The notes beneath the pieces were generated by a model. It saw only the letters and a program-made list of their open reading frames with translations. It had not been told where the DNA came from and made no database searches. Below are positions 27,764 through 48,500 of a DNA stretch of 64,000 nt, one piece after another; the first letter of the stretch is position 1, and each line of letters begins with the position of its first letter. The DNA is from an uncultured Methanomicrobiaceae archaeon. GTDB taxonomy: Archaea; Halobacteriota; Methanomicrobia; Methanomicrobiales; Methanoculleaceae. A program made the translations under genes and the position numbers. The DNA lies in the NCBI GenBank assembly GCA_963826525.1, contig CAWGXH010000004.1:1248001-1312000 (forward strand), given 5' to 3'.

Positions 27764-30384
27764 CGCTGCCCGTTTCCTCCGTTTGCCAGGTTCCTGAGCC
27801 GGTGGAGGGTGTTTAAGGCCGCGAGCGGGGTCATTTCGTCGAGATTCATCGCCCGGAGCTCTTCGACCGCCGGGTTCACCTCGACGACGCCCTCACCCGT
27901 ATCGACGAGCAGCATCTGGGTGTAGCGGGGCGTCTTTCCGCCGCCTTTCAACTCCTGCGCCATCGCCTCTTTGAGGATGACGAGCGCCCGCTCGGTCACC
28001 TTCTTCGGGATACCGGCAAGCTCCGCGACGTGGACGCCGTAACTCTTATCGGTCGCACCCTGGACGAGTCGCCGGAGGAAGATCACCTCGCGTCCCGTAT
28101 CCTTCACTGCGAAGTGGAAGTTTCTCACCCGCTTGAGTCTCCCCTCGAGCTCGATCAAGCTCGTGAAAGTGGGTGGCGAAGAGCGTGCGCGGGCCGACCA
28201 CCGCTTTGCCGTGGAGGAACTCGACCACCGCCTGGGCTATCGAGAACCCATCGAGGGTGCTCGTTCCCCTGCCGATCTCGTCGAGGATTACGAGGCTCTG
28301 CGGCGTGACGTTGTTGAGGATGTTCGCAAGTTCGAGCATCTCCACCATGAAGGTGCTCTGGCCGCTCGCAAGGTCGTCGAACGCCCCGACCCGGGTGAAG
28401 ACCCGGTCGACGATTCCGATCGTGGCGTGCCGGGCGGGGACGAAGCTTCCCATCTGGGCCATGATGCAGAGGAGAGCGACCGCCCGCATGTACGTTGACT
28501 TTCCGGCCATGTTCGCGCCGGTGACGATCATGATCTGGTTGCCGCTCCCATCGAGGTCGGTGTCGTTCGGCACGAACCCGAACTCCATGCTCCGCTCCAC
28601 GACCGGGTGGCGCCCCTCCCTGAACGACGATCCGGCTGCTCTCCTCGATGACCGGGCGGGTATAGTCGTAACGGGCCGCATTCTCGGCGAGGGCCGCATA
28701 GACGTCGAGGTGCCCGATCGCCCGGGCGGTCGCCTGCAACGCGGGAACGCATTCGGCGAGCGTCCTCACCAGTTCGGCGTAGACCTCCGCCTCCAGAACC
28801 GAGAGCCGCTCTTCGGCGGTTGCGATCAGCGCCTCCTTCTCGCGAAGCTCGGGGATGGTATACCGCTCGCCGTTCGCCGTCGTCTGCCGGCGCTCGGTAC
28901 TCTTCCGGCACCAGGTGGAGGTTCGCCCTCGTCACCTCGATGAAGTAGCCGAAGATGCGGTTGTAGGAGACCTTCAGGGATTTGATTCCGGTGCGTTCCC
29001 GCTCCTGCTGCTGGAACTGCCCGATCCAGTCCTTCCCCGAGGTCGAGAGGCTCCGCAGTTCGTCGAGGTCGGCATCGAACCCTTCCCGGATCATCCCCCC
29101 CGATCGCGCCAGCGCCGGAGGTTCGTCGACGATCGCCCGGGCGATGAGATCCGCGGTCGCGGAGAGATCGCTCATGGCGTCGAGGGCTCCCCTGATATTC
29201 TCCGGCATGTCACCTGTGAGAAGTTCCTTTAAGGCCGGGATTCTCTCTATCGACTCGGTCAGCGTGACCAGATCGCGCGGCCCGGCATTCCCGTAGGATA
29301 TCCGCCCGGCGATCCGCTCGATATCGCCGCACCGGTCGAGATGGGCGCGGAGGTCTGCTCGTACCATCGCACTATCGACGAAGTACTCGACCGCATCGAG
29401 CCGCCGGCCGATAGCCTCCGGGTCGATCAGGGGGGCTATCAGGAACGATCGCATCAGGCGGCTGCCCATCGAGGTCTCGGTGACGTCGAGGGCATCGAGG
29501 AGCGTGACACCGGCCGCCTCGCCCCGGATACTCTTCGTGATTTCGAGGTTCCGGAGGGTGATGGCGTCGAGCACCATATTCCGTGCCGAAAACCTCGTTG
29601 CAAGGCCGGCGATGTGGGCGAGTCCCGACTGCTGTGTCTCCCGGGCGTAGCGGAGGGCGGCGCCTGCGGCAGCGACCGCCCCGTCGAGTTCCTCGCAGCC
29701 GTATCCGGCGAGCGAACTCGTGCCGAACTGCTCGCAGAGGAGCGAGCGGGCGGTCTCTGTGAGGAAGGCATCGTCACGGTAGCGGGAAACGAGAATGCCC
29801 TGCGCCCGGAGCCTGCCGGCGAGCGCGTCGGGAGCGCTCTCCGGGACGATGCACTCGGACGGGCGGTAGCGGACGACCTCCGAGACGACCTCGCCATAAT
29901 CGCGCCCTGCATCCGAGGCCGAGACGAAGAACTCACCGGTGGAGACGTCGAGGAATGCCGTTCCGATCGATCCCTTCTTCCCGGGAGCGACGGCCATGAG
30001 GTACTGTGCGCCCGATGACCCGAGCATCGAGGAGTCGATGACCGTGCCGGGCGTGATGACGCGCACGACATCCCGCTTCACGATGCCCTTCGCCTTCTTC
30101 GGGTCTTCGACCTGGTCGCAGACCACCACCTTGAACCCTTTGTTCACCAAGCGGGCGATGTAGCCCTCGGCGGCATGGTGAGGGACACCGGCGAGCGGCA
30201 TCCGTTCACCGTTTTTGTCCCGTCCGCGGGAGGTCAGGACTATATCGAGCTCGCGCGCAACGACGGCGGCATCTTCACCGAAGGTCTCGTAAAAGTCACC
30301 CATCTGGAAGAAGAGGATAGCATCGGGGTGCTCTGCCTTAGCCGTATAGTACTGTTTCATCGCCGGGCTTGGTCCGTCCTTCAT
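27760..30384 (-). CDS. mutS: DNA mismatch repair protein MutS (several frameshifts)
   Basis: [45 protein letters not shown]. Confidence 0.95.
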
Positions 30385-31794: not shown

Positions 31795-32293
31795 ATGCGA
31801 GTCTGGAAATTCGGCGACGATATCGATACGGATGCAATCATCCCGGGCAGGTTCCTGACGATCTACGACGAGAAGGAACTCGCAGAGCACGTCTTTGAGG
31901 GAATACGCGACGAGCTTCGCGCAACCGTCGCGGAAGGCGACATACTCGTCGCCGGCAATAACTTCGGGTGCGGGTCGTCCCGTGAACACGCTCCCCTCGC
32001 GCTGCGGGGCGCCGGGATCAGGATCGTGATCGCAAAGTCCTTTGCCCGGATCTTCTACCGGAACGCGATCAATACGGGGCTTCTGCCCCTGGTCTGCCCT
32101 GAGGCGGATACGATCGAGGACGGAAGCGAAATTGTCGTGAATCACGGCGGACGGCTCCGTCGAGGCGGACGGAAGGAAACTTCCCATCGAGCCGGTGCCG
32201 CCGTTCCTCCAGCGGATCGTCGATGCCGGGGGACTCGTCGAGTACGCGAAGGGAATGGATGAGGTGGAGACATGTACCGAATCGCAAGCATAG
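31795..32293 (+). CDS. leuD: 3-isopropylmalate dehydratase small subunit (frameshift near 32150)
   Basis: [30 protein letters not shown]. The loop reads FLTIY rather than the HacB-type YLRT. Confidence 0.85.
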
Positions 32294-33391
32294 GCGGCGA
32301 CGGCATCGGCCCTGAGATCATCGAGGCCGGAAAAGTCGTTCTGGATGCGGCCGGCGAGCGGTACGGCTTTGATATCGCATGGGAAGACTTCGCTATCGGG
32401 GCCGACCGATACCTCGCGACCGGCGAGCTCGTCACCGAGGAGGATCTCGCCGACCTCTCCCGGTTCCGAGGCGATCTACTTCGGGGCTATCGGGGACGAC
32501 CGGGTGAAACCCGGCATCCTCGAGAAGGGTATTCTGCTCGCCCTCCGGTTCCACTTCGATCAGTTCGTCAACCTCCGGCCGATCAAGCTGCTGGAGGGGG
32601 TTGCAACACCGCTTGCGAACAAAACCCCGGCGGATATCGACTTCGTCGTCGTCCGCGAGAACACCGAGGACTTCTACGTCGGTATCGGGTCGCGGTTCAC
32701 CGGCGGGAGCGAGACAGCGACGCTCGAGGTCGTCCGCGATATCTACCAGGTGAAGTTCGGGATGGACGTTACGACCGATGCGGAGGAGATTGCCTACCAG
32801 ATCGGTGTCATCACCCGCGAGGGAGCGGAGCGTGTCATGCGTTACGCCTTCGACCTTGCACAGCGGCGGGAGAAGAAACTCACCTCCGTGGACAAGGCGA
32901 ACGTCCTCTCCGATGTCTACGGCCTCTGGCGCGACGTCTTTTCGGGTGTTGCGAAGGATTACCCGGAGGTTTCGACCGAGTTCAATTTCGTGGACGCTGT
33001 CACGATGTGGTTTGTCAAGAACCCCGAGTGGTTCGACGTCGTGGTCACGCCCAATATGTTCGGCGATATCATCACCGACCTCGGGGCAATCATCCAGGGC
33101 GGGCTCGGCCTCGCCCCGGGCGGGAACATCAACCCGCAGGGCACTTCCATGTTCGAACCTATCCATGGTTCGGCACCGAAGTACAAAGGGCTCAACGTGG
33201 CAAACCCCATGGCCACCATCTGGGCGGGATCGATGATGCTCGACCATCTCGGCGAGCACGAGGCGGCGGCGGCCGTCCTCCGGGGTATCGAGCAGAGCAT
33301 CACCGAACAGTTCGTCACCCGGGATATGGGCGGGAAGGCGACGACGAGCGAGGTCGGCGACCACGTGGCGTCGCTGGTCCTGCAACGATAA
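32272..33391 (+). CDS. leuB: 3-isopropylmalate dehydrogenase (frameshift near 32470)
   Basis: [37 protein letters not shown]. Confidence 0.88.
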
Positions 33392-35970: not shown

Positions 35971-37116
35971 CTATGCTCTTCGCCGCTGCCCGTCCATACA
36001 GGCGTTCAGTACCTCGTCGAGGAACTCGAGCGTTCCCTCGACACCGGCGAGCGCCCGGGCGCGAAGGTGCACCCGCCCCCGCACCGGCGGTGTCAGGGGG
36101 ACGAAGGGAGTCTTCGGGATGACGCTCTGTTCGTAGGACGAACCGATGACGAGATCGGGCTCGCATGCCCTGAGCAGATCCGCTATCCGGGTGAAGTCGA
36201 CCGTCTCCTCGACCCGGAAGCGGGAGGGGGGGGCGTGGTTTCGGGAGCAGATGCAGGCTATCTCGGCGTCGAGATGCTGCTCGAGCGTCTCCGCGACGAA
36301 GACTGCATATGCCCCTCCTCCGAAGACTGCCGCCCGGGGAGGCTCGAAACGGCGCAGGTACTTGTCGCATGCCTTCGCGATCCGCGCCTCGGCGGAGGCG
36401 ATCTCCCGGTAGACCGGTGCGGGGTCGATAGTGTCACGGGTGTTCGCGAGTCTCTCGAATGTCTCCGCCACTGCATCGAGGCCGAGGAGGGAGCCGCACC
36501 ACTCTCCGACGCCGCTCGCGAGGTCGGGATTCGTGCCGACCGTGAACGGAGCCGCCCTATACGCCGCATCGAACCGGTCGCAAGCGAAGGTCGTGCCGAT
36601 GCCCGCGCCTGCCGCCGTGAGCAGGCGCCGGGCTTCCAGCATGTTCCCCCGGTGCAACGGATCGATAAGGCTGATCCCGTCGATGTTGATGCCCGGCATC
36701 TCGTCGTCGACCGCCGGCTGTATCCGTTCCAGCGCCGCGTGGTACCCGGCCTCGAGCGTGCCGAGGAATCCCGGACTGTCGACGAGGAGCAGGTCGTGAT
36801 CGTCGACCACACCGGCGAGGTCCTCCCCCATAATCGCGGGCACGCAGGTGGTGACAACGGCGATATGATCGTACCGTCCGGCAACCTCGCCGATCACCTC
36901 GCCGAGCCGCTCTTCCGTCCCGAAGATGATCTCGTTCTCGACGAGAAACGTCCCGTGGATGGGGGCGGCGACGAGGGAGGCCGGGTAGAAGTAGCAGCCG
37001 CTCGAACCGTGGACGATGACGGCGAGATCTTCGAACCCGGCGAGACACGCGACCGCTCCGGTCATGGCGCAAGGCCAGAGCGGGTTTGAGCAGTCCTGCT
37101 GTGCGGGTGGGTGCAT
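35971..37116 (-). CDS. nitrogenase component-1-like oxidoreductase (K/B-like subunit)
   Basis: WPCAMTGA, VHGSSGC, ENEIIFG, TTCVPAIMGED, DSPGFLG. Confidence 0.85.
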   Translation of the reverse strand: MHPPAQQDCSNPLWPCAMTGAVACLAGFEDLAVIVHGSSGCYFYPASLVAAPIHGTFLVENEIIFGTEERLGEVIGEVAGRYDHIAVVTTCVPAIMGEDLAGVVDDHDLLLVDSPGFLGTLEAGYHAALERIQPAVDDEMPGINIDGISLIDPLHRGNMLEARRLLTAAGAGIGTTFACDRFDAAYRAAPFTVGTNPDLASGVGEWCGSLLGLDAVAETFERLANTRDTIDPAPVYREIASAEARIAKACDKYLRRFEPPRAAVFGGGAYAVFVAETLEQHLDAEIACICSRNHAPPSRFRVEETVDFTRIADLLRACEPDLVIGSSYEQSVIPKTPFVPLTPPVRGRVHLRARALAGVEGTLEFLDEVLNACMDGQRRRA

Positions 37117-37215
37117 GGTCTGGCAAGATCATCGATGCGGCGGGATAAAAGGGTGGCGCAGGGGCGGGCACTTCGCCGCAGCCGATGTGAATTACGGGGT
37201 ATTCTCTTTTTATTC

Positions 37216-38503
37216 GTGAATATATGCTGTATTAAGGCTCAGAATTGTACTCTGCTCCTAGTCGCGCTCCTGCTTCTCGCGGGAGGGTTCGTCTCTTCCG
37301 CGTCTGCTGCCGGGACCGCCGACGTGACGATCGTCTCCTCTCCCGGTGGTGCCTCCGTCACGGTAGACGGCTCCTATGTCGGCATGACCTCGCGGGGTCG
37401 ACCCTTCCATTCTCCGTCACCGTGAACGCAGGAGCCCATACTGTGGCCGTAGCACTCACCGGGTACCAGCCCTCGGTTACCACCATCCAGGCGAAGCCGG
37501 GCGAGCTGCGGACGCTCTCGATGATCCTCGCCTCCTCCCCGGCGTCGGGTGCGGCATACGTCGCCTCGACGCCCGGGAGCGCGATGGCGTCGCTTGACGG
37601 CGGCGAGACACGGGCGACTCCCGCGAACTTCACCGTCGTGGCGCCCGGAACGCACTCGGTGAAGATCACGAAACCGGGTTTCGTTCCCTGGTCGAAGACG
37701 GTGACCGCCAATGCAATCCTGAACCCGGCGCCGGATACGGGAACGCTCTCGGTCATGTCAAACCCGTCCGGTGCCGATATCTATCTTGACGGGACGTACC
37801 TGGTTTATTCCCCGATCACCCTCGGGAACGTCGTCCAGGGCGGACACGAGCTCCGCCTGCAGCTCGCCGGGTACCAGACCTGGACGGGGACGGCATCGGT
37901 TGGAGGCGGGAAGACCGCTGCGGTGAGCGCAGTCCTCATCCCGACACCTGCCGGGACGTAGGTGACATCGCCGTGACGTCCACGCCCGCGGGAGCGGCGA
38001 TATATCTCGACAACACCTACCGGGGCACGACTGCCGCCGGGAACCCGATTGATATCACCGGGGTCTCTCCCGGTACGCACGCTGTCACGCTGACGCGTGC
38101 CCGGTATGCCGATTACGTCACCGGCGTTTCCGTCGCCCCGGGACAGACGGTGCGCATAGCCGCGGTGATGATGCCCGGTGCAGGCCCGGGTGAGAAAGGC
38201 TTGGTCGCGGTCTCTTCAAAACCCTCCAGTGCAGACATCTATCTCGACAACCAGTATCTCGGGATCACGCCGCTTACGCAGGCCGGCGTCGCGCCGGGTC
38301 AGCATGCGCTGCTTATGAAGGTGAACGGCTATACGGACTGGTCGGGAGATGTCCAGGTGGCGGCAGGGAAGACCACTGAGGTCACGGCAGGCATGATGGC
38401 GAAGCAGAGCGCGCCGGAGGCAGGGAGTGCTCCTGTCCTGCTGCCGGGTGCGCTCATGCTTGCCGCGGTGCTGTACCTCGCGTGCAGGATGAAACGAGAA
38501 TAA
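37216..38503 (+). CDS. PEGA-repeat cell-surface protein (frameshifts near 37395 and 37960)
   Basis: Signal peptide, about 5 S-x-P-x-G-A-x-I-Y-L-D repeats, C-terminal TM with basic tail. Confidence 0.85.
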
Positions 38504-38530
38504 CTCCCCCCATTTTCTCTGACGGATGGT

Positions 38531-38986
38531 TTAGCGTTTCACGACCATGACCGGCTGATGAGCATTTTTGACGACATACTCGGAGACGGTGCCGAGCAGC
38601 CGGTCGCGGATGTTGCTCCTGCCGTGCGATCCTATGACGATGAGGGAGACGTTCTCCTCGTCAGCCGCTTTGACAATCGCCTTTCCCGGCTCGTCGATGG
38701 GTGTCCGGACATGCACTGCGAACCCCTCCCGCTCGAGCTGCCGGCGTGTGTCGATGATGTTGTTCTGGATATCCTCCCGTAACCGTCGCTGAACCTCGGT
38801 CTCGACGTCCGGCACCGAGCCGAGGAAACCCGCTCCACCCGATGCGATCAGGGTGATATCCTTCTGGTCGATGACATGCACCATCACGACTTCGAGGGTG
38901 CCGGCGGCCTTCAGATCCCGGATATAGTCCATTGCTTTCAATGAGGGCTCGGAGAAGTCGGTGGGGAACAAAATGCGCTGAAACAC
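38531..38986 (-). CDS. universal stress protein
   Basis: ILFPTDFS, LIVIGSHGRS, LLGTVSEYVV. Confidence 0.93.
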   Translation of the reverse strand: MFQRILFPTDFSEPSLKAMDYIRDLKAAGTLEVVMVHVIDQKDITLIASGGAGFLGSVPDVETEVQRRLREDIQNNIIDTRRQLEREGFAVHVRTPIDEPGKAIVKAADEENVSLIVIGSHGRSNIRDRLLGTVSEYVVKNAHQPVMVVKR

Positions 38987-39069
38987 GGTTGGATCCTCCT
39001 CTGTGGATAACCAAACCTTTGTTCATCCTGTATATAAGAGTACGGTCGGGCCAGGCCGGGAACCGGCCT

Positions 39070-40143
39070 TTATCGGTGGCCGCCTGAACGGATTGCCCGT
39101 TGCCAGCGGTGCAGCATCCGGTGGATGCCTGCGGTTCCGACAGGAGCCGGGTAGGGGGCAGGGAGCGGTATCCCATCCTGCGTGAGGCGGAGATCGAGCG
39201 TTTCTACTAGTTCTGCGACGATCCCGCGCCCTTCCCCATCCTCTTCGAGCATTGGGGAGAACCGGTCGAACCTGATACGGGTTCCGGCGAGATCGGCGAA
39301 CTCTGCCAGAATCTCCTTCTGGTATGCAGCCTCCTCATGCACCGGATCACGGGAGTCCTGTCCGGTAAGTCTGCCCACCTCTTCGAGGAACCGGCGGGTT
39401 CCGGCGAGACCCGCCGGAAACGATTCGACGAAGGGTGTTCCGTGTCGGTGCATAAGTTCCTCCCCGACCGGCCGGAGAGCCGGTTCGCGGAGGATGTTGA
39501 GCGATCCCGCACCAAGCCGGGCGACATCGCGCGTAGCGATATCCCGGACGAACCGGAGGTTCACCGGAAGGTCGAAGTATGCAAGCAGACGCACCATCTC
39601 GGCGTAGTTTTCGTCGACATCCGATTCGAGGTTCTTTTCCCCGATGAGCGTCACCCCGGCGTCCTGTTGTGAGCAGGGTCCGGCAAGAGTCGCGGCGGCG
39701 AGCAGTGCATTCGAAACCCCCGTCTGGAAGATGCCGCCGAGGAATCCGGCCGTCCGGATGGGAACGACCGGCAGATCCCACTCGCGCGTGCAGACGCCGT
39801 AGACGTCGTCGCCGATGGTATCGACGATACAGGTGGAGAGGACGAAGAGCGACGCCGGGGATGGCAGAACCTCGTGAGCACGGCCGATGCACCGTTCAAG
39901 CGCATCTTCACCGCCGAAGATGATCTCGTTCTCGGAAAGCCCGGTCGAGAGGAGACGTGGGACGGCAACCGTATCGTTTCCGAGCAGCGTTGCATGGAGG
40001 AGGGAAAAATTGTGGTGGGTGCATCCGGCAGGGCCGTGGATGATGCAGACCGCGTCGCGTATCTCTGTCACCACGGCGAGAGCGCCGGTCAGGGTGCATC
40101 CCTCAAACCTGGACACATTCGAGGGCAAAGGCTTCGAGTTCAT
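39070..40143 (-). CDS. nitrogenase component-1-like oxidoreductase (D/N-like subunit)
   Basis: [40 protein letters not shown]. Overlaps the end of the nifH-like gene. Confidence 0.85.
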
Positions 40144-40921
40144 CCATGTCGAAGGGAGTCGGAATGCTCGTCTGGGTGTTCTTGTAGATATCGTCGGCCA
40201 GCTGCCGGTAGACCTCTGCCTGGCCGGAATCCGGAGCATACTCGATGACCGTCTGCCTGTTCAGCTCGGCGAGCTGGACGATGCGGTCGCGCGGTATATA
40301 CGCTATCAGGGATGAGTTGATACGCCGGGCGAACTCCTCCACGAGGTCACGTTCCCCTTCGATGTTCTTCGCGTTGCAGATGACGCCGCCGAGCCTGCAG
40401 CCGTTTCTGACCCTCTTCGAGAGGCGGGCGATCGCTTTTGCGATGTTGTTTGCAGCGTAGATCGACATCAGCTCGCCGGAGGTGACGAGGTATACCTCCT
40501 CGGCGTAATTCTCCCGCATCGGCATGGCGAAACCGCCGCAGACGACGTCGCCGAGGACGTCATAGACGATCACGTCGCCGTTAAGAGCGCCGAGCCGTTC
40601 CAGAAGCTGGAAGGTTGCGATGATTCCACGTCCGGCACACCCGATCCCCGGTTCCGGACCCCCTGCCTCCACGCAGCGCACACCCGAGAAACCGGGATGG
40701 ACGACGTCGTCCACGGTGAGGTTTGCATCTCCCCGCTCACGGATAAGGTCGAGCACGGTCGGGATCCAGGTCCCGTGCATCAGCATCCTGGTGCTGTCGT
40801 GCTTCGGATCACAGCCGATCTGCAGGATCTCAAGGCCGCTTCTTGCCAGTGCTGCCGAAAGGTTAGCCGACGTCGTGGATTTGCCGATTCCACCTTTCCC
40901 GTAGAGGGCGATCTGTTTCAT
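40103..40921 (-). CDS. NifH-like (nitrogenase iron protein family) ATPase/reductase
   Basis: [46 protein letters not shown]. Confidence 0.95.
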
Positions 40922-41358: not shown

Positions 41359-41988
41359 ATGGACCCACACTACCGTTCACGACTGATTGCCGTTGTCATC
41401 GCCATGATCGTTATCTGTTCGGCTTTTTCGGTCAGCCCGGTAGCTGGATTCCGACTGGAGAACAGGGATGGAAACGGCACCGGTGCAATACTTGCCGAAT
41501 CGCTGGTAATGCAGGAGAGCACCAAGCTTGAGGAAGAGTTTCTGGAAAACGTGACCGTCTACATCGACAGCCGGAGCGACAAGTTCGAGCCGTACCGAAA
41601 CTCCTCGCTCGAGGTTTTTGTGAACGGTGTCTATAGCCTTGAGGAGGATGCGATCTACCTGCGATCGGATCTGAATCCCGAGAGTGCGGACGAGACGCTC
41701 GTCCAGCAGATCGGATACCGGATCTACTACCGGAAGGGGCTTGAGAAGAGCGATCTTCTGCGGTCGCTCACACCGGCTCCCGGGTCTTACCTGAGCCGAA
41801 TCAGCACCCTGCCGGGCGAGGTCACCGGTGCGACCGTCTTTGCAAATGCCTTCATGCTCTACTACACATCCCCCGAGCTGCTCGAGACGGACAACCCCGG
41901 GCTCTACACCTATATCGACCTGCTCGTCGAGACAGGAGGGGATGCAGCGGTCGTCGACGACCTGTACCGCACCTCCGAGCCGGCGTGA
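41359..41988 (+). CDS. secreted protein with a degenerate lethal-factor-like zincin fold (predicted inactive)
   Basis: Signal peptide, then GVY...AIYL...LVQQIGY (HExxH position), TVFANAF, NPGLYTYID. Confidence 0.6.
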   Translation: MDPHYRSRLIAVVIAMIVICSAFSVSPVAGFRLENRDGNGTGAILAESLVMQESTKLEEEFLENVTVYIDSRSDKFEPYRNSSLEVFVNGVYSLEEDAIYLRSDLNPESADETLVQQIGYRIYYRKGLEKSDLLRSLTPAPGSYLSRISTLPGEVTGATVFANAFMLYYTSPELLETDNPGLYTYIDLLVETGGDAAVVDDLYRTSEPA

Positions 41989-42004
41989 TCCGGCTTTTCT
42001 CACG

Positions 42005-42013
42005 TTTTTTTTT
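42005..42013 (+). terminator. archaeal oligo-T terminator
   Basis: Run of T shortly after the 41988 stop. Confidence 0.45.
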
Positions 42014-42579
42014 AGGCTCATTTCAGGGCGCTTCCCTTTCAGTCTTTTCGATCCGGACTCTTCAAACCCGCAGGGAAATCGATTTACGTACGATGATATG
42101 ATCCTGCGTTCCGGCGCAATGAACGCCGGGATGAACTGATGGGCTTCAACCCTGCATGGCGAGCGTTTTTCCGGCCGGAGCCGGTGATCAATGCCTCACC
42201 GGGTTCGTTTCGCGTCTCGATGCAGATTTCCGCTGGTAGGTCTACTGCGCTCCGGTGAGATGTGCGTGACTGTCCCCTGTTCCGGGAAGAATATTCGGCT
42301 TCATGATACGTGACGGCACGGGTGCTGGATTTTTCCATACGCTGATTTTTTCCAGCGCGATTGAGATATATGCTCGACCGTTCAAGGTTTCTCAAGGGCC
42401 TGATTGCCATGCGAGAGTTTGTGGTACTTCGGATGTGCGATTAATTCAGGGAAAAGCGAGTGCTGTTCATCCCACCCTGATAAGCCGGATGAGCATACTA
42501 TAGCTCGAAGGCAGATGTGTTTGCATTCTTCAACTTAAGAGTCTGCTCGTTTTTGCCTTCGGTTTGAAGGTGATTACCA

Positions 42580-45500
42580 ATGAGCACGAAACGTATAGAG
42601 AGAGTCATTCCTCTTCTCATGGCGGTGCTGATGATAACCACGGCGTTCATCCCCGCGGTGAGCGCTATGGCACCGCAGGCAACTGCATCGAGTATGGATG
42701 CCGGGGGGATACTCGGTGCCTGACATAACCCCTTCTGCCGCAGAGATGTCCGGAGCGGCATCCGGGACGGTATCGAACGGTCAAAGCGTTGCAAAAAATA
42801 AGAAGAACCAGTCGTCGTGGTCGGCAGAGAACTGGGCACAACCCATGTCTGGGACGAACGCCACCGGCTATGCCCCTTCGGGGATTGAGTCTGCCGCAGA
42901 ACCGGGTATAGATTCTCTAGGCGGCAGGAGTTGAACGCGTGGTCACCGGTTCCGGCAAGACCAAGATCAAGGTTCACGATCCGGAGACCAGAACCATCGG
43001 GATTCAGGACGAGAGCAGGTCTGGCGGCAACGGCGGCGACGATGAACTCGAGATCAGGCTGCTGAACGCCACCCCTGACCTCGGCACCTTCACGGAGATA
43101 TTCGAGGTAACCGCACACCGCATGATCGCACTCGACGAATCGGAAGACTTCCTGGCCACGAGAGCGCTCCATAACGGGAACGAGAACGTCACACGGGCTA
43201 CCAGTGGTTCGTCTGAGAGAACAGATCGCATACCGTCGAGATTCACATCATCGAATAACGAAATGTTACCCTGCGGCATACCGCTCTCCTGAGAATGAAC
43301 CCGAGGACGTCGATCCTGACGACACCTTCGGAGATATTACCCTCGCAGAGCGGCGACTCACAAGGCAAAGCCGGGCTGAAAGTACCTATGAAGAGATCTT
43401 AATGAAGGATAAAACTCTTGAGAGCGGTGTTCACGAGGAGATCGTCCCCGAGAGCGCTCCCCACCAGAACAGCACCCCGGAAAACAGCACTTCTGAGAAC
43501 GTTCCCATCGAAGACGTCATCCCTGACATCGATATCTCCGGAAACACCACTCCTGATGAGACAACTTCCAAAACCGTCACAATCAGAGAGCCCTATATCG
43601 CCGGCACCGAGACCAGGGAGGAATCCTGGCCGGAGTGGGTGGCGTTCGACCCGGCAGGGCGGACGGCTCAATGTCGGTGAGACCTATCAGTTCAAGGTAA
43701 TCTACAAAGAATACGCCGAGATAGGACAGTTCGATATCAAGACGGCGCCGGTCATCGAGGCGTCGCATGCCCGGAGATGACCTGGTGGACTACCGCCTGG
43801 GCATACTGGGTGCCGATCACGATCATCAGCCCGCCCTCAATCGATGGCTACTCGCACTGTGAGAACGTCTCATTCCGCGACGGGATGCAGAGCGACTTCG
43901 ATGACGTCCGGTTCGCAACCGACGACGGCACCGTCCTCGACTACTGGAAAGAGTCCTATACGGCATCCGGTTCGGCGGCCATCTGGGTCGGCCTTCCCGC
44001 CGGTACGACCTCGATCTGGATGTACTACGGGAACGCGAGCTGCCACCGATATCGGCGACATGAACAGTGTCTTCACCCTCTACGATGGCTTCGACGGGCC
44101 GTCTCTCGACACCACTCTGTGGCATGAATCGCCTTATCCTGGGGTGAATTACTTCTCCAAAGGCTGGATATACAATGCCCAGTCTCATAATGCACTACGA
44201 ACTAGAATACTCGGAATAGTGTGATTCACGAGCGGCGAACCGCTGATCGTGGCGATGCACATCCATGTCGATAGTCTGCCTCGGTCTCCCACCATCAGCT
44301 GTGGGTGTTTCCCCTATTCCTTGGCGGCATTTACAACGGCATGTCTTGGTGCTGGGAGGGGCCGTACAGACCGGCGTGTCCGCGTGAATGGTGTGTCATC
44401 ATGGCGACCGGGAACATCAGCGTGGTCTCGAGGTTGGGGGTGACTACTACAGCACTTGGATCATCACTCCCTCCACTCAAACTCACACTGTCAGCGGAAG
44501 CGCCACATACACCGATGTTTTCGCTGGCACTACCGGGATATCAAACCATCAAATGTTCCTCCTAGGCGGTGACAACTACATTCCCGGTCGAGTAATACGG
44601 ATGGACTGGGTCAGGGTCCGGAAATACGTCGAGACCGAACCGGTGTTCACGTATGGAACACCGCAGGAATCACCCGTCGTGACGACGATCTCTGTCACTC
44701 CGTCGGATGTGGATCTAGCGGTGGGCGAGACCTGTCAGTTCACTGCTACTGCTTATGACGATGCTGGTAACGTGGTGGACATCACCTTCACCTGGGAGAG
44801 CAGCAACGAGACGGTCGGCACCGTGACCGAAGACGGTGTCTTTTCAGCAAATTACGACGGGACAACCGAAATATCTGCATCTGCAGGTTCGATAACCGTA
44901 ACCGCGCAGGTGACCGTCATCCCTGTCAGTGACGTACGGATCGGCATGGAACTGCTCTGCCGACGGCTGGTATCAGGCTGGTCGTCTACCGCATCGTGGA
45001 CATGCCCTAACGGCGCCTGCGCCGAATATGGCCCCGTCATGGTCGACGGTCACGGAGAACACGGTGCGGACGTCCATCTCTCGGCGGGTGCGGTGATAGC
45101 AAGTGTCGAGCACAACTTTACTGATCCCTCCGGTGTCGGGTGGGACGGCTTGGCGCTCGTCGCGCGCGTGGGGGGAAGCAGCGTCCCCTCCGGGCGGTGG
45201 ATGACCATCGAGGTGAACGGCGAGCTTGTTTACTCGGAGTCCGGTTTCTCCAGCCTCCGATCCTGACAATGCGATCCCCAGGATGTTCCAGGCCGACTTC
45301 CCGCAATCCGACACCGTGCGGATAAGATATCTCCCATGGGCAGAACCCGATGTGGAGCACTCACGTCCCGATGGACTACTATTCGCTCGAATTGCATCCG
45401 TCTACTCCCCCCATCGCCATCACCTCTCCGCGTGACGATACGGTGCCGTCCGGCGAGAACGTCACCGTGGCCGGGAACGTCTCCGATACGAGCATTACCA

Positions 45501-48500
45501 ACCTCACGCTCACTCACAACGGCGTGAATTCGACCCTCACGGTGCAGAACGGGATACTTTTCGGCCAAGGTGACCCTTGCGGATGCGAATACGATCACGG
45601 TCAGCGGCACCGACTCGTGGGGCAACCCGATCTCGAAGACGCTCCTGCTGGACGGCGATATGCTGCCAGCCGACTTCGAAGAGTCGATCGGGTTCGATCC
45701 GCTCGACGCTGATTCCGACTGGACCCAGTGGTATGGAAACCAGGCAGACAACGGGATCATCGACGGTTACGAGCACTCCTTCAACGGGCTGCCGGTCTTT
45801 GTGAAGTACCGGATCGGCGCCGATCCGTTCGCGTTTGATAGTGACGGCGATTGGCTCCTCGACGACTTCGAGCTGATGCACCTCGCCCTCACCACCAGTG
45901 TCTGCTCGTCTGATTCCGATGGCAACGGTATACTGGATAGGGACGAGGACCCGGATGATGATGGTCTTTCGAATTATGAGGAACAGACCTACGGGACCGA
46001 ACCGCTGATGGCCGATACCGACGACGACGCTCTTCCCGACCGGGAGGAGATCTCGCTGGGAACCGATCCCTGCAACGCAGATACCGACGGCGACGGCATT
46101 CTCGACGGCTATGAGGTGACACTCGGAACCGGCCTTCTGAACAACGATACGGCCGTCCTCGGCACACTAGACGGTGAGGAGGATTACTGGAGCACCGGGC
46201 ATTATATCAACGAAACGCTGAACCTGACGGTCCACGGCCGGGGCTACGCGATCGCCAACGCCAGTGTTCCCAGGTTAACTTCACCAATCTTATGCGAGAG
46301 GATGTCCTCGTCAGCAAGGTCTACGATATCGGGTTCGGCGATGGTATCGACCACGGAACGGTAACGATCAAGTATAACAGCACGTTCGTTGAAGATAACG
46401 AAACCCTGTCGGTATACCGGTTCGACGAAGATTTCGGGACGTTTTTGCCGATCAATTCGACGGTCGACGAAACACAGGGGGTCGTGACCTGCGCCGTGAC
46501 CAACTCCTCGATGTACGCCGTGCTGGATTCGGTGAAGTGGGACTCCCTTTTCGTCAACTGGCCGGGCATGTCGTCCAGTGAGGTGTCGGCACTAGGTGAG
46601 GGATGGCAGGCTGTTGCAAACGGAGATTTCTCGGAGGGGCAGACCGGTTGGGTGCCGTCCGGTCAGTATTTCTACAATCAAGCGAACTATGGAATGATAG
46701 TTGAGCCCTATTATCACTCGGGGTACGAACCTTCTCCGCCATCTTTGAGAATTTCGATCTGGAATAAAAGGCCTGAGGATTTTACAGAATGCATAGTAAT
46801 GCACCCCAATGTTGATCTGACAGATGTCGATTCCCTTACATTCAGACTACAGGTGCATTGAAAGCCATCAGAGTGGGGGCATCGCCTCGTCCGGGTTACG
46901 ATACTGGATCGATGGGGTATCCACTGCGGGATCGCCGAGTTTCAGGGATGACGGTAGTGGCCTGGTCTGGGTGGATAAGGAATGGCAGACGGCAACTATC
47001 GATGTGAGTGACGTCAAGGGTGTAAGATCTCTATATTTCAAAGTCTCGATGAACAGGGACATGGGAATAATCGAGTATAACGAAGCAGACCTGACATATC
47101 TCATTGACGATGTTACTGCCTGGTCGAAGACGGAGCCACACAGCCCGATACCGCCATCGTGCGGCTCCATGTCGAAGATATCGCAGTCGCATGCAGGCGT
47201 GCCCAACGCAAAAATCACCCTTTCCGATAGTGGGAAATATGTGTATACCGATGCATACGGAAATGCCTATGATTTTCTCTTTAAAGGCCCTTTAGTGACT
47301 CTATCTCCTACCGTATCGAAGCGGAAGGCTACAACAATCATGACGGATACATACGAATCGATCCCGATGATTTCGGCACAAACCGTACCGATAAAGCAGT
47401 CATCAACGATGGTCTCACGGGTTCGATCGAGGTAACCTACACTCAATCGCAGGTATTCATCTACGTTGACGATATGTACTATCAGGGCCACTGGAAACAC
47501 TGCTTATATTTTCGATCTCTGTGCAGAACCAGGATACAAATTCGCATATCGTTAGATTTGAAAAGGTGAGTTGGAGTCCCCAAAAACAGATGTTTGGTAC
47601 CTGCCGGTGGTCAGCCGCACGTTTCCTTTAACCTGATGGATGCAACGGGGGCAATCGAGGTCACCTCCACGCCGCCGGGTGCCGCCGTGTACCTCGATCA
47701 GGTGTATAGAAACACCACGTCAGAGGGTTCCGGACTCCTCACGATATCGAATGTCAACTCCGGCCAGCACCGGATCGACGTTCAAAAGGACGGCTATGCT
47801 CCGTTCTGGACGACGGTAACGGTGGCCGATGGTCAGACTGCTCAGGTGGAGGCGGACCTCGACAACACGACGAAGAGGAGGACGGCATACTGGATTACTA
47901 CGAGAGGAACGGGTTCGTCGACGGCTTCGGCAATCGGCACGTAACCAATCCCGACTCGGTCGACACCGACGGCGACGGGCTCTCGGACGGATACGAGGTG
48001 ACGGAACTCGTCCATCTGGGTGGGAATCTCTTCTTCTTCAAGTCCAGGAGCGACCTGACGAAAGTAGACAGCGATGACGATGGGATTAATGATCCCGACG
48101 AGCCCGAGTTCTTGACGCAGCCGATGAGACGCGATACCGATTCGGATAGGATCCTCGATAGGTGCGAGCTCCTGCTCGGGACCGATCCGATCAACCGTGA
48201 CACGGACTATGACGGGAATGATGACTATCTCGAGTTACAGTTTGACTATCCCTACGGTCCGCTGGTTCATGCCGACAGGAGTTACATTGAAAACGCCATT
48301 GCTCTTGCCGACGGTTTTGCCTCCGGCGAGAGGGGCGCAGACCGTTGCGACAACCTGTACGACCTTGCCGGGTGGATGTTAAGTGGTGTTGTCCTTGCAG
48401 GAGATATCCGTGATATAGGCGGGTCGATAGTGCGCGGCGACGGGATGGGAACGCTGGCGAATGCCTTTGCTCAGATCCCGGCAATAGGAGATGCTGAAAG

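Follow-up and report, generated by a model that had tools for sequence, protein, structure and literature searches.

A 64,000-nucleotide (nt) stretch of DNA from an uncultured Methanomicrobiaceae archaeon (GenBank assembly GCA_963826525.1, contig CAWGXH010000004.1, positions 1,248,001 to 1,312,000; hereafter the window) carries on its minus strand a gene for a NifH-family Fe protein and two genes for nitrogenase component-1 subunits. These genes are termed nflH, nflD, and nflK here; their products are referred to as H, D-like, and K-like, and the putative heteromer of the latter two as NflDK. An earlier reading of this DNA (the original prediction) had described an orphan, nitrogenase-like three-component reductase that is neither Nif nor Cfb. 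All three open reading frames (ORFs), including the two short component-1 subunits, were confirmed and have Pfam matches (Table 1). The operon points to a second ATP-driven reductase that would use CfbC, the Fe protein of coenzyme F430 synthesis, as its electron donor.

The D-like ORF is open back to an ATG at 40239 (40239-39070, 389 amino acids [aa]). The ATG at 40143 is the start conserved in the family, with an N terminus common to 16 members, giving a protein of about 357 rather than 389 aa whose gene overlaps the 3' end of nflH by 41 nt. The three genes are not contiguous in the window, where a universal stress protein (USP) gene and the opposite-strand frames of a PEGA-domain surface-protein gene separate nflD from nflK. 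Synteny places a USP gene after nflD in Methanoculleus-type loci only; we infer that the gene in the window has its own promoter, in a TATA-like stretch upstream of it. Of the other loci, only L024 has a homologous PEGA gene in this position. Among named relatives, a Methanoculleus taiwanensis protein is closest to K-like (88% identity), and the window locus is the Methanoculleus version of an order-wide nflH-nflD-nflK operon, with nflK displaced about 2 kb downstream.

Table 1. Features of the nfl locus, given as positions in the window.
Feature	Position	Strand	Basis
nflH/cfbC, NifH-family Fe protein, 272 aa	40921-40103	-	Pfam Fer4_NifH, E 1.2e-109
nflD (D-like), alpha-type component-1 subunit, 357 aa	40143-39070	-	Pfam Oxidored_nitro, E 1e-44
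nflK (K-like), beta-type component-1 subunit, 381 aa	37116-35971	-	Pfam Oxidored_nitro, E 2e-46
D-like Cys16 codon (GCT motif)	40096-40098	-	Alignment
D-like Cys41 codon (AGC motif)	40021-40023	-	Alignment
D-like Cys105 codon (TCI motif)	39829-39831	-	Alignment
D-like Arg219-Glu220 in 'LNILRE'	39484-39489	-	Computed from start 40143
K-like Cys codons C9, C16, C41, C91	37092-37090, 37071-37069, 36996-36994, 36846-36844	-	Alignment
Universal stress protein gene, between nflD and nflK	38986-38531	-	Pfam Usp, E 5.4e-29
PEGA-domain surface-protein gene, three frames	37111-38503 (37111-37425, 37245-37961, 37973-38503)	+	Pfam

The system is not the orphan it was taken for, being found across the order Methanomicrobiales. 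With D-like as the query (E <= 1e-20), 119 of 121 genomes of the order gave a match, 118 of which were strong and one of which was to a NifE-type protein only; no match was obtained in two of the 121, G053 (99% complete) and G098 (62% complete). A phylum sample of 251 genomes (48 of the order and 203 others) yielded matches of at least 392 bits in 47/48 order genomes and 0/203 others, with the next best matches, at most 194 bits, being H-D fusion proteins of 740-810 aa and NifE/NifD. Within this sample, the D-K system is restricted to one archaeal order.

Gene order is equally regular. Across 80 named loci (41 Methanoregula-type and 39 Methanoculleus-type), nflK directly follows nflD in all 41 of the former, and nflH directly precedes nflD in 40 of them, the contig of the remaining locus beginning at nflD. 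H-D is likewise kept in 39/39 Methanoculleus-type loci; where nflK lies within the fetched flank (25 loci), it adjoins nflD in 0/25 and is inverted in 21/25, and in four Methanoculleus genomes without nflK in the flank it was located 13-14 kb away or on another contig (4/4). Among 19 regions from six families, H-D-K is contiguous in 18, that is, in 18/18 regions bearing a D-like gene. In the nineteenth (L134, G053:C13:19000-38000), the small gene usually found after nflK comes immediately after nflH; G053 has cleanly lost D and K and has kept H and cfbD. An apparent 500-bp insert (intein) in Methanoregula D-like genes was rejected, having arisen from the D query cross-matching the adjacent K gene instead.

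Models of the characterized families do not recognize either component-1 subunit. On the CfbD model TIGR03282 (cut-off 268.4), D-like scored 52.0 bits and K-like 48.7 bits; scores on the Nif models were 72 bits against 653.6 (nifD), 58 against 427 (nifK), 96 against 505 (nifE), and 28 against 327 (nifN), with the Vnf and Anf models lower still, and those on the Bch models were 37.9 bits against 420 (BchN), 34.5 against 490 (BchB), and 37.9 against 529 (BchZ). The description "neither Nif nor Cfb" therefore holds for D-like and K-like, and fails for H, which passes the CfbC model (see below). Profile searches of the PDB gave, for D-like, the NifEN fusion (152 bits), Clostridium NifD (121), VnfD (115), NifE (112), MarD/MarK (95), and BchB (85), and for K-like, NifEN (92 bits), NifK (76), AnfK (71), and MarK (58). 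An ESM Atlas search returned only the family's own clusters.

Phylogeny was computed as a quick maximum-likelihood tree of 94 rows, whose unassigned rows were 36 of 98 long representative matches and which included 8 fusion proteins. The K-like proteins form one clade (support 100), which falls with NifK and NifN in a beta-type group (97). D-like forms one clade (Shimodaira-Hasegawa-like approximate likelihood ratio test [SH-aLRT] 83) in an unresolved group with the H-D fusions, uncharacterized bacterial proteins (from Nitrospinae, Chloroflexi, Tectomicrobia, and Limnochordia), and CfbD, whose branch is very long; D-like lies outside both the CfbD clade (100) and that of NifD/E (100). In line with the original prediction, each subunit has a clade of its own, and by sequence the two are distinct component-1 paralogues of nitrogenase, one of alpha and one of beta type. 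As PF00148 members outside Groups I-III and V that are paired with a NifH homologue, they belong to Group IV in the broad sense, assignment to one of its lettered subgroups (A-F) requiring named reference sequences.

The nearest relatives of D-like include NifH-NifD-like fusion proteins of 720-810 aa, which are found in other families of the phylum (e.g., G243, G251, G294, and G306) and in Desulfococcaceae bacteria; two genomes of the order, G033 (C1:569839-570834) and G051, carry a fusion protein as well as H-D-K.

The three N-terminal cysteines that had been noticed in each subunit are conserved across both families. D-like C16, C41, and C105 align with NifE Cys37, Cys62, and Cys124 and with NifD Cys62, Cys88, and Cys154, and are kept in 15/16, 16/16, and 16/16 members, the single miss being an N-terminally truncated row; the 16-row alignment contains no other conserved cysteine. 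K-like C16 (PCA), C41 (SGC), and C91 (TCV), which align pairwise with NifK Cys70, Cys95, and Cys153, are invariant (18/18), C9 is a fourth invariant cysteine, and a further one, C250, is conserved in at least 90% of rows. All six P-cluster cysteine positions are present across the pair, which is in keeping with the proposal that the 3 + 3 cysteines could bridge a P-cluster-like center. At the first of these columns, CfbD has Ser in 8/8 rows and D-like has Cys in 15/16, the other row being truncated.

The Cys ligand of the catalytic cofactor is missing. The column that binds the iron-molybdenum cofactor (FeMo-co) or the L-cluster holds Cys in NifD ('LNLVHC') and NifE ('LNIVQC') and Glu220 in D-like, whose family members carry E, D, or S after the invariant R219 (16/16) and never Cys; the ligand column of NifD Cys275 and MarD Cys270 has no Cys in D-like. 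Conservation is otherwise extensive, with 37 invariant columns in D-like and 36 in K-like, including every cluster Cys, down to 36-39% identity. Invariant arginines (R185, R197, R219, R348, and R349 in D-like; R164 and R292 in K-like) would suit an anionic substrate.

Three proteins (P0273, P0279, and P0292) of bacterial origin (Limnochordia, Chloroflexota, and an unclassified bacterium) show the D-like motif 'LN(I/V)(I/V/L)R(D/A)' at the FeMo-co-ligand site, and P0273 is similarly short (372 aa). They may represent this enzyme type in bacteria.

The same residues bear on whether NflDK could be a NifEN-like metallocluster scaffold or carrier (e.g., for the MCR activation machinery) rather than a substrate reductase, a role we consider quite improbable. 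The L-cluster-binding Cys of NifE is replaced by Glu/Asp in D-like, NifEN has a 3 + 1 Cys [4Fe-4S] site as opposed to the 3 + 3 (+1) set found here, the operon contains neither nifB nor nifX, and the pair is restricted to one order, unlike the universal MCR activation system, and has been lost in G053. Such a role would nonetheless accord with the best PDB matches of both subunits, which are the NifE and NifN halves of the NifEN fusion, and with NifB being universal in methanogens and supplying clusters to non-nitrogenase targets (10.1101/2023.10.20.563283, PMC13474568).

Structure prediction was applied to the D-like and K-like pair with family alignments of both subunits. The complex passed with a score of 0.82, the best of three controls reaching 0.00; 116 of 157 solved complexes attain this mark, as do 2 of 215 mismatched pairs. 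Runs agreed in at least 79% of contacts, and the predicted local distance difference test (pLDDT) of the partners was at least 89. Of the conserved cysteines, seven in all, five (D-like C16, C41, and C105; K-like C9 and C16) are among the named interface residues, and K-like C41 and C91 are at the edge of the named interface segments. The heteromer of the original prediction is plausible in the light of this model and of the contiguity of H-D-K in other genera.

The operon is linked to F430 synthesis through the identity of H. H scored 420.8 bits on the NCBIfam model F430_CfbC (NF033200) and passes its cut-off of 402; the nifH of the genome's nif cluster scored 382.1 bits and falls under it. 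These are the only two NifH homologues in the genome, the second belonging to a nifH-D-K-E-N cluster (C4:158.9-166.3 kb). H has the P-loop GKGGIGKS from residue 8 and cluster cysteines C95 and C128, which we take to be equivalent to NifH C97 and C132. A genuine cfbD (TIGR03282, 500 bits against the cut-off of 268.4) lies on contig 3 in a cfbE-cfbD-cfbB cluster that lacks cfbC. The original prediction asked for a separate cfbCD to be confirmed elsewhere in the genome, and its reading would fall if these were the only cfbC/D candidates: cfbD is indeed elsewhere, and H is the only candidate for cfbC.

This arrangement is general in an order sample of 61 Methanomicrobiales genomes (at least 95% complete, plus the window's own genome). 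Exactly one cfbD was found in 61/61, and it never adjoins H. A CfbC-type H was found in 61/61, 59 of which score above the NF033200 cut-off, and H abuts the D-like gene, directly upstream, in 60/61 (coordinates compared by eye), the exception being G053, which has no D-like gene. No further NifH-family gene (E <= 1e-50) occurs in 43/61 genomes, one of the 43 being represented by a contig-end fragment. Other families of the phylum have cfbD immediately upstream of cfbC in 4/5 complete genomes. F430 synthesis requires an Fe protein, as reportedly found by Zheng in 2016 and by Moore in 2017, and since H is the sole NifH-family gene in 43 genomes, H must be CfbC there. Judged by model score and gene content, the lineage has in H its CfbC, the ATP-dependent Fe protein for making coenzyme F430.

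H might serve CfbD only, with D and K sharing its transcript and either using another reductant or being decaying relics; we think this very improbable. Co-transcription is no proof of interaction, and one 99%-complete genome (G053) lost D and K and kept H. However, all component-1 homologues known to us need a NifH-type partner, 43/61 genomes offer no other than H, and the H and D genes overlap. Decay of D and K is excluded by the 37 and 36 invariant columns noted above, which comprise every cluster Cys and persist down to 36-39% identity. Because G053 lacks D and K and keeps both H and cfbD, the pair, and with it the NflDK reaction, is presumably not needed for F430 synthesis itself.

Neighboring genes were surveyed in 26 loci, and 14 of the commoner neighbor clusters were identified by Pfam. 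Several families have in common the upstream neighbors TrkH, a flavodiiron protein, desulfoferrodoxin, and PRK and, on the opposite strand, aconitase/IPMDH-type genes; these tell nothing of the substrate. Within these clusters and loci, the surroundings of the operon yielded no sulfur gene, whether cysteine synthase, methionine synthase, or another, so that gene context lends no support to the sulfur scavenging that had been suggested as a role. This counts against a CfbC-driven enzyme that cleaves C-S bonds or reduces sulfur compounds in the manner of Mar or Isr, acting on a methanogen-relevant thioether or sulfonate (coenzyme M [CoM]-like compounds or dimethyl sulfide [DMS]), because such neighbors are a hallmark of the bacterial systems (PMC13753814). 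Nor was a MarB/IsrB-type (nflB-type) radical SAM gene found among the 14 clusters; Glu/Asp replaces the Cys ligand of the Mar cofactor in D-like; the D-like profile gives 95 bits on MarD (9FMG, the structure of MarDK2H2; PMC12552129) versus 152 on NifEN and 121 on NifD; and near-universal presence across habitats fits housekeeping better than scavenging. We therefore regard a C-S-cleaving enzyme as unlikely, although the nearest relatives outside the order are uncharacterized bacterial proteins whose best solved match is MarD, Mar retains the same six P-cluster cysteines (PMC12552129), and the characterized non-Cfb members of Group IV, Nfa apart, act on sulfur compounds (PMC13474568, PMC13753814).

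Several further observations were made around the operon. A TspO/MBR-family gene stands a few genes upstream of nflH, on the same strand, in 5/26 loci (including L063 and L068); this family is known for tetrapyrrole binding. Downstream of nflK and on the other strand, one family (L116, L117, L118, and L120) has a conserved block with a CDP-alcohol phosphatidyltransferase and a class I/II aminotransferase, which may be a lipid head-group pathway. In seven loci, K is followed by a protein of 148 aa that matches no Pfam family and does not resemble the window's USP. No RNA data set with these sequences was listed, and in three DNA runs of a single soil study at most 0.26 of the sampled words occurred. 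Replacement of CbiJ (cobalt-precorrin-6A reductase) by NflDK was considered and dropped, Pfam CbiJ (PF02571) being absent also from genomes without NflDK: it was not found in the window's own genome or in any of the 251 phylum genomes (203 without NflDK). CbiJ was found in the control genomes of M. jannaschii and Synechococcus, and its absence from the sampled genomes suggests an unrecognized replacement enzyme across the phylum.

Some genes of this genome can be read only across two or three frames, namely nifD (G000:C4:163088-164474, two ORFs of 367 and 253 aa), cfbB (L015:2550-3924), the PEGA gene, the N terminus of an IPMDH-type gene (window 32272-33391), and the C-terminal part of mutS (window 28528-30384). 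Indel errors of the assembly are a likelier cause than a set of pseudogenes; the H, D-like, and K-like ORFs, unlike these genes, are intact. Downstream of H in window coordinates, at 41359-47435, lie large ORFs with Asp-rich, surface-protein-like translations; the only one of this run to be scanned, 41359-41988, has no Pfam match.

We propose that CfbC serves two partners, CfbD and a NflDK heteromer that reduces an organic substrate directly, and consider it an even bet that this is correct. D-like and K-like would form the heteromer, by analogy an alpha2beta2 tetramer, whose D-K interface would contain either a P-type [8Fe-7S] cluster or two [4Fe-4S] clusters (double-cubane). The same CfbC dimer that serves CfbD would dock on NflDK and hydrolyze ATP, and electrons would pass from the interfacial cluster to an organic substrate held in a cofactor-free pocket of the D subunit, as in DPOR, COR, and CfbCD. 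As to what is reduced, our guess is an anionic intermediate of cofactor synthesis, either a tetrapyrrole from the F430 or corrinoid branch or some other compound. The link with cfbC and the absence of a cofactor from the pocket lead us to rank a substrate of this kind first, C-S cleavage second, and a scaffold role third. The narrower version, in which CfbC drives both the homomeric CfbD and a heteromeric NflDK with a P-type [8Fe-7S] cluster and no L- or M-cluster, which makes or modifies a tetrapyrrole or cofactor peculiar to Methanomicrobiales, is put forward tentatively and seems to us somewhat doubtful. We know of no characterized nitrogenase relative in which a P-type [8Fe-7S] cluster passes electrons straight to an organic substrate without an L- or M-cluster.

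A number of points weigh against the proposal that CfbC serves both CfbD and NflDK. Docking of CfbC on NflDK, like the activity of the enzyme, is deduced from sequence. No tetrapyrrole gene was found in or next to the operon among the 14 clusters and 26 loci surveyed. The best sequence matches are to the maturase NifEN; the complex score may pass through likeness to solved NifDK or NifEN structures; these very sequences may have been among those used to train the CfbC model; and the tree was built without named Mar, Isr, Nfa, and Bch sequences. The window's genome is only 87.6% complete, and a second Fe-protein gene could be unassembled, which the 43 single-copy genomes of the order argue against. 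Finally, the nearest characterized Group IV enzymes, Mar and Isr, cleave C-S bonds, and Isr has also been proposed to work without a complex cofactor (PMC13474568).

Most Group IV nitrogenase-like clades have no assigned function, and methanogens are known to carry extra ones; for assays of the order-wide archaeal system described here, an Fe protein with another, known function is at hand. Such assays would test whether a single Fe protein works with two catalytic partners unrelated to each other, a question that bears on how specificity evolved in the nitrogenase family. A full set of P-cluster ligands without the ligand of a catalytic cofactor would represent an intermediate between the simple tetrapyrrole reductases and the Mar and Nif enzymes. 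If the product is a cofactor variant, the system would add a biochemical step in the dominant hydrogenotrophic methanogens of wetlands and digesters.

Published work touches on such genes in several places. A 2026 review names IV-A (Nfa), IV-B (Cfb), IV-C (Mar), and IV-F (Isr) within Group IV and treats the remaining clades as uncharacterized (PMC13474568); the words Methanomicrobiales, Methanoculleus, and Methanoregula are absent from it. A 2026 mBio screen deals with bacterial systems only (PMC13753814), and a 2023 preprint states that methanogens hold further nitrogenase-like proteins of unknown function (10.1101/2023.10.20.563283). In the literature we found no account of this operon as an order-wide feature or of cfbC having been captured by it; the genes may be listed in the supplements to Dos Santos 2012, to Anderson 2009, and to the mBio paper of 2026. 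Dos Santos 2012 (PMC3464626) reports unnamed NifE/NifN-like pairs with three Cys each and without both FeMo-co ligands, whose hosts include Archaea. That description fits NflDK, a match by description and not by clade; the Methanomicrobiales pair, its order-wide conservation, and the cfbC link are not named in the available part of that paper.

Among known systems, NflDK shares with NifEN, the best match of both subunits, an alpha/beta heteromer with a NifH-type partner, but the L-cluster Cys of NifE is Glu/Asp in D-like, and K-like has three to four cluster cysteines where NifN has one. The bacterial MarDK and IsrDK (Groups IV-C and IV-F) are also Group IV-type heteromers, and Mar has the same six P-cluster cysteines. 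Mar, however, depends on a NifB-type maturase and has an [Fe8S9C] cluster ligated by Cys270 and His429 (PMC12552129), whereas D-like lacks that Cys; furthermore, the Mar and Isr genes are bacterial and lie amid sulfur-metabolism genes, whereas those of NflDK do not and are restricted to one archaeal order in the phylum sample. Transfer from an Fe protein through an interfacial Fe-S cluster to an organic substrate in a cofactor-free pocket is a likely point of agreement with DPOR and COR (BchLNB and BchXYZ), although DPOR uses a [4Fe-4S] cluster held by three Cys and one Asp (PMC3464626, PMC13474568). CfbD differs in being one homomeric subunit with two cluster cysteines, and with Ser at the first cluster-Cys column where D-like has Cys, as opposed to two paralogues in one operon. 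CfbCD and the system described here nevertheless have the same Fe protein, the window's H being of the CfbC type; both are methanogen-specific, and both have a catalytic component that lacks the FeMo-co-type Cys ligand and would thus bind its substrate directly.

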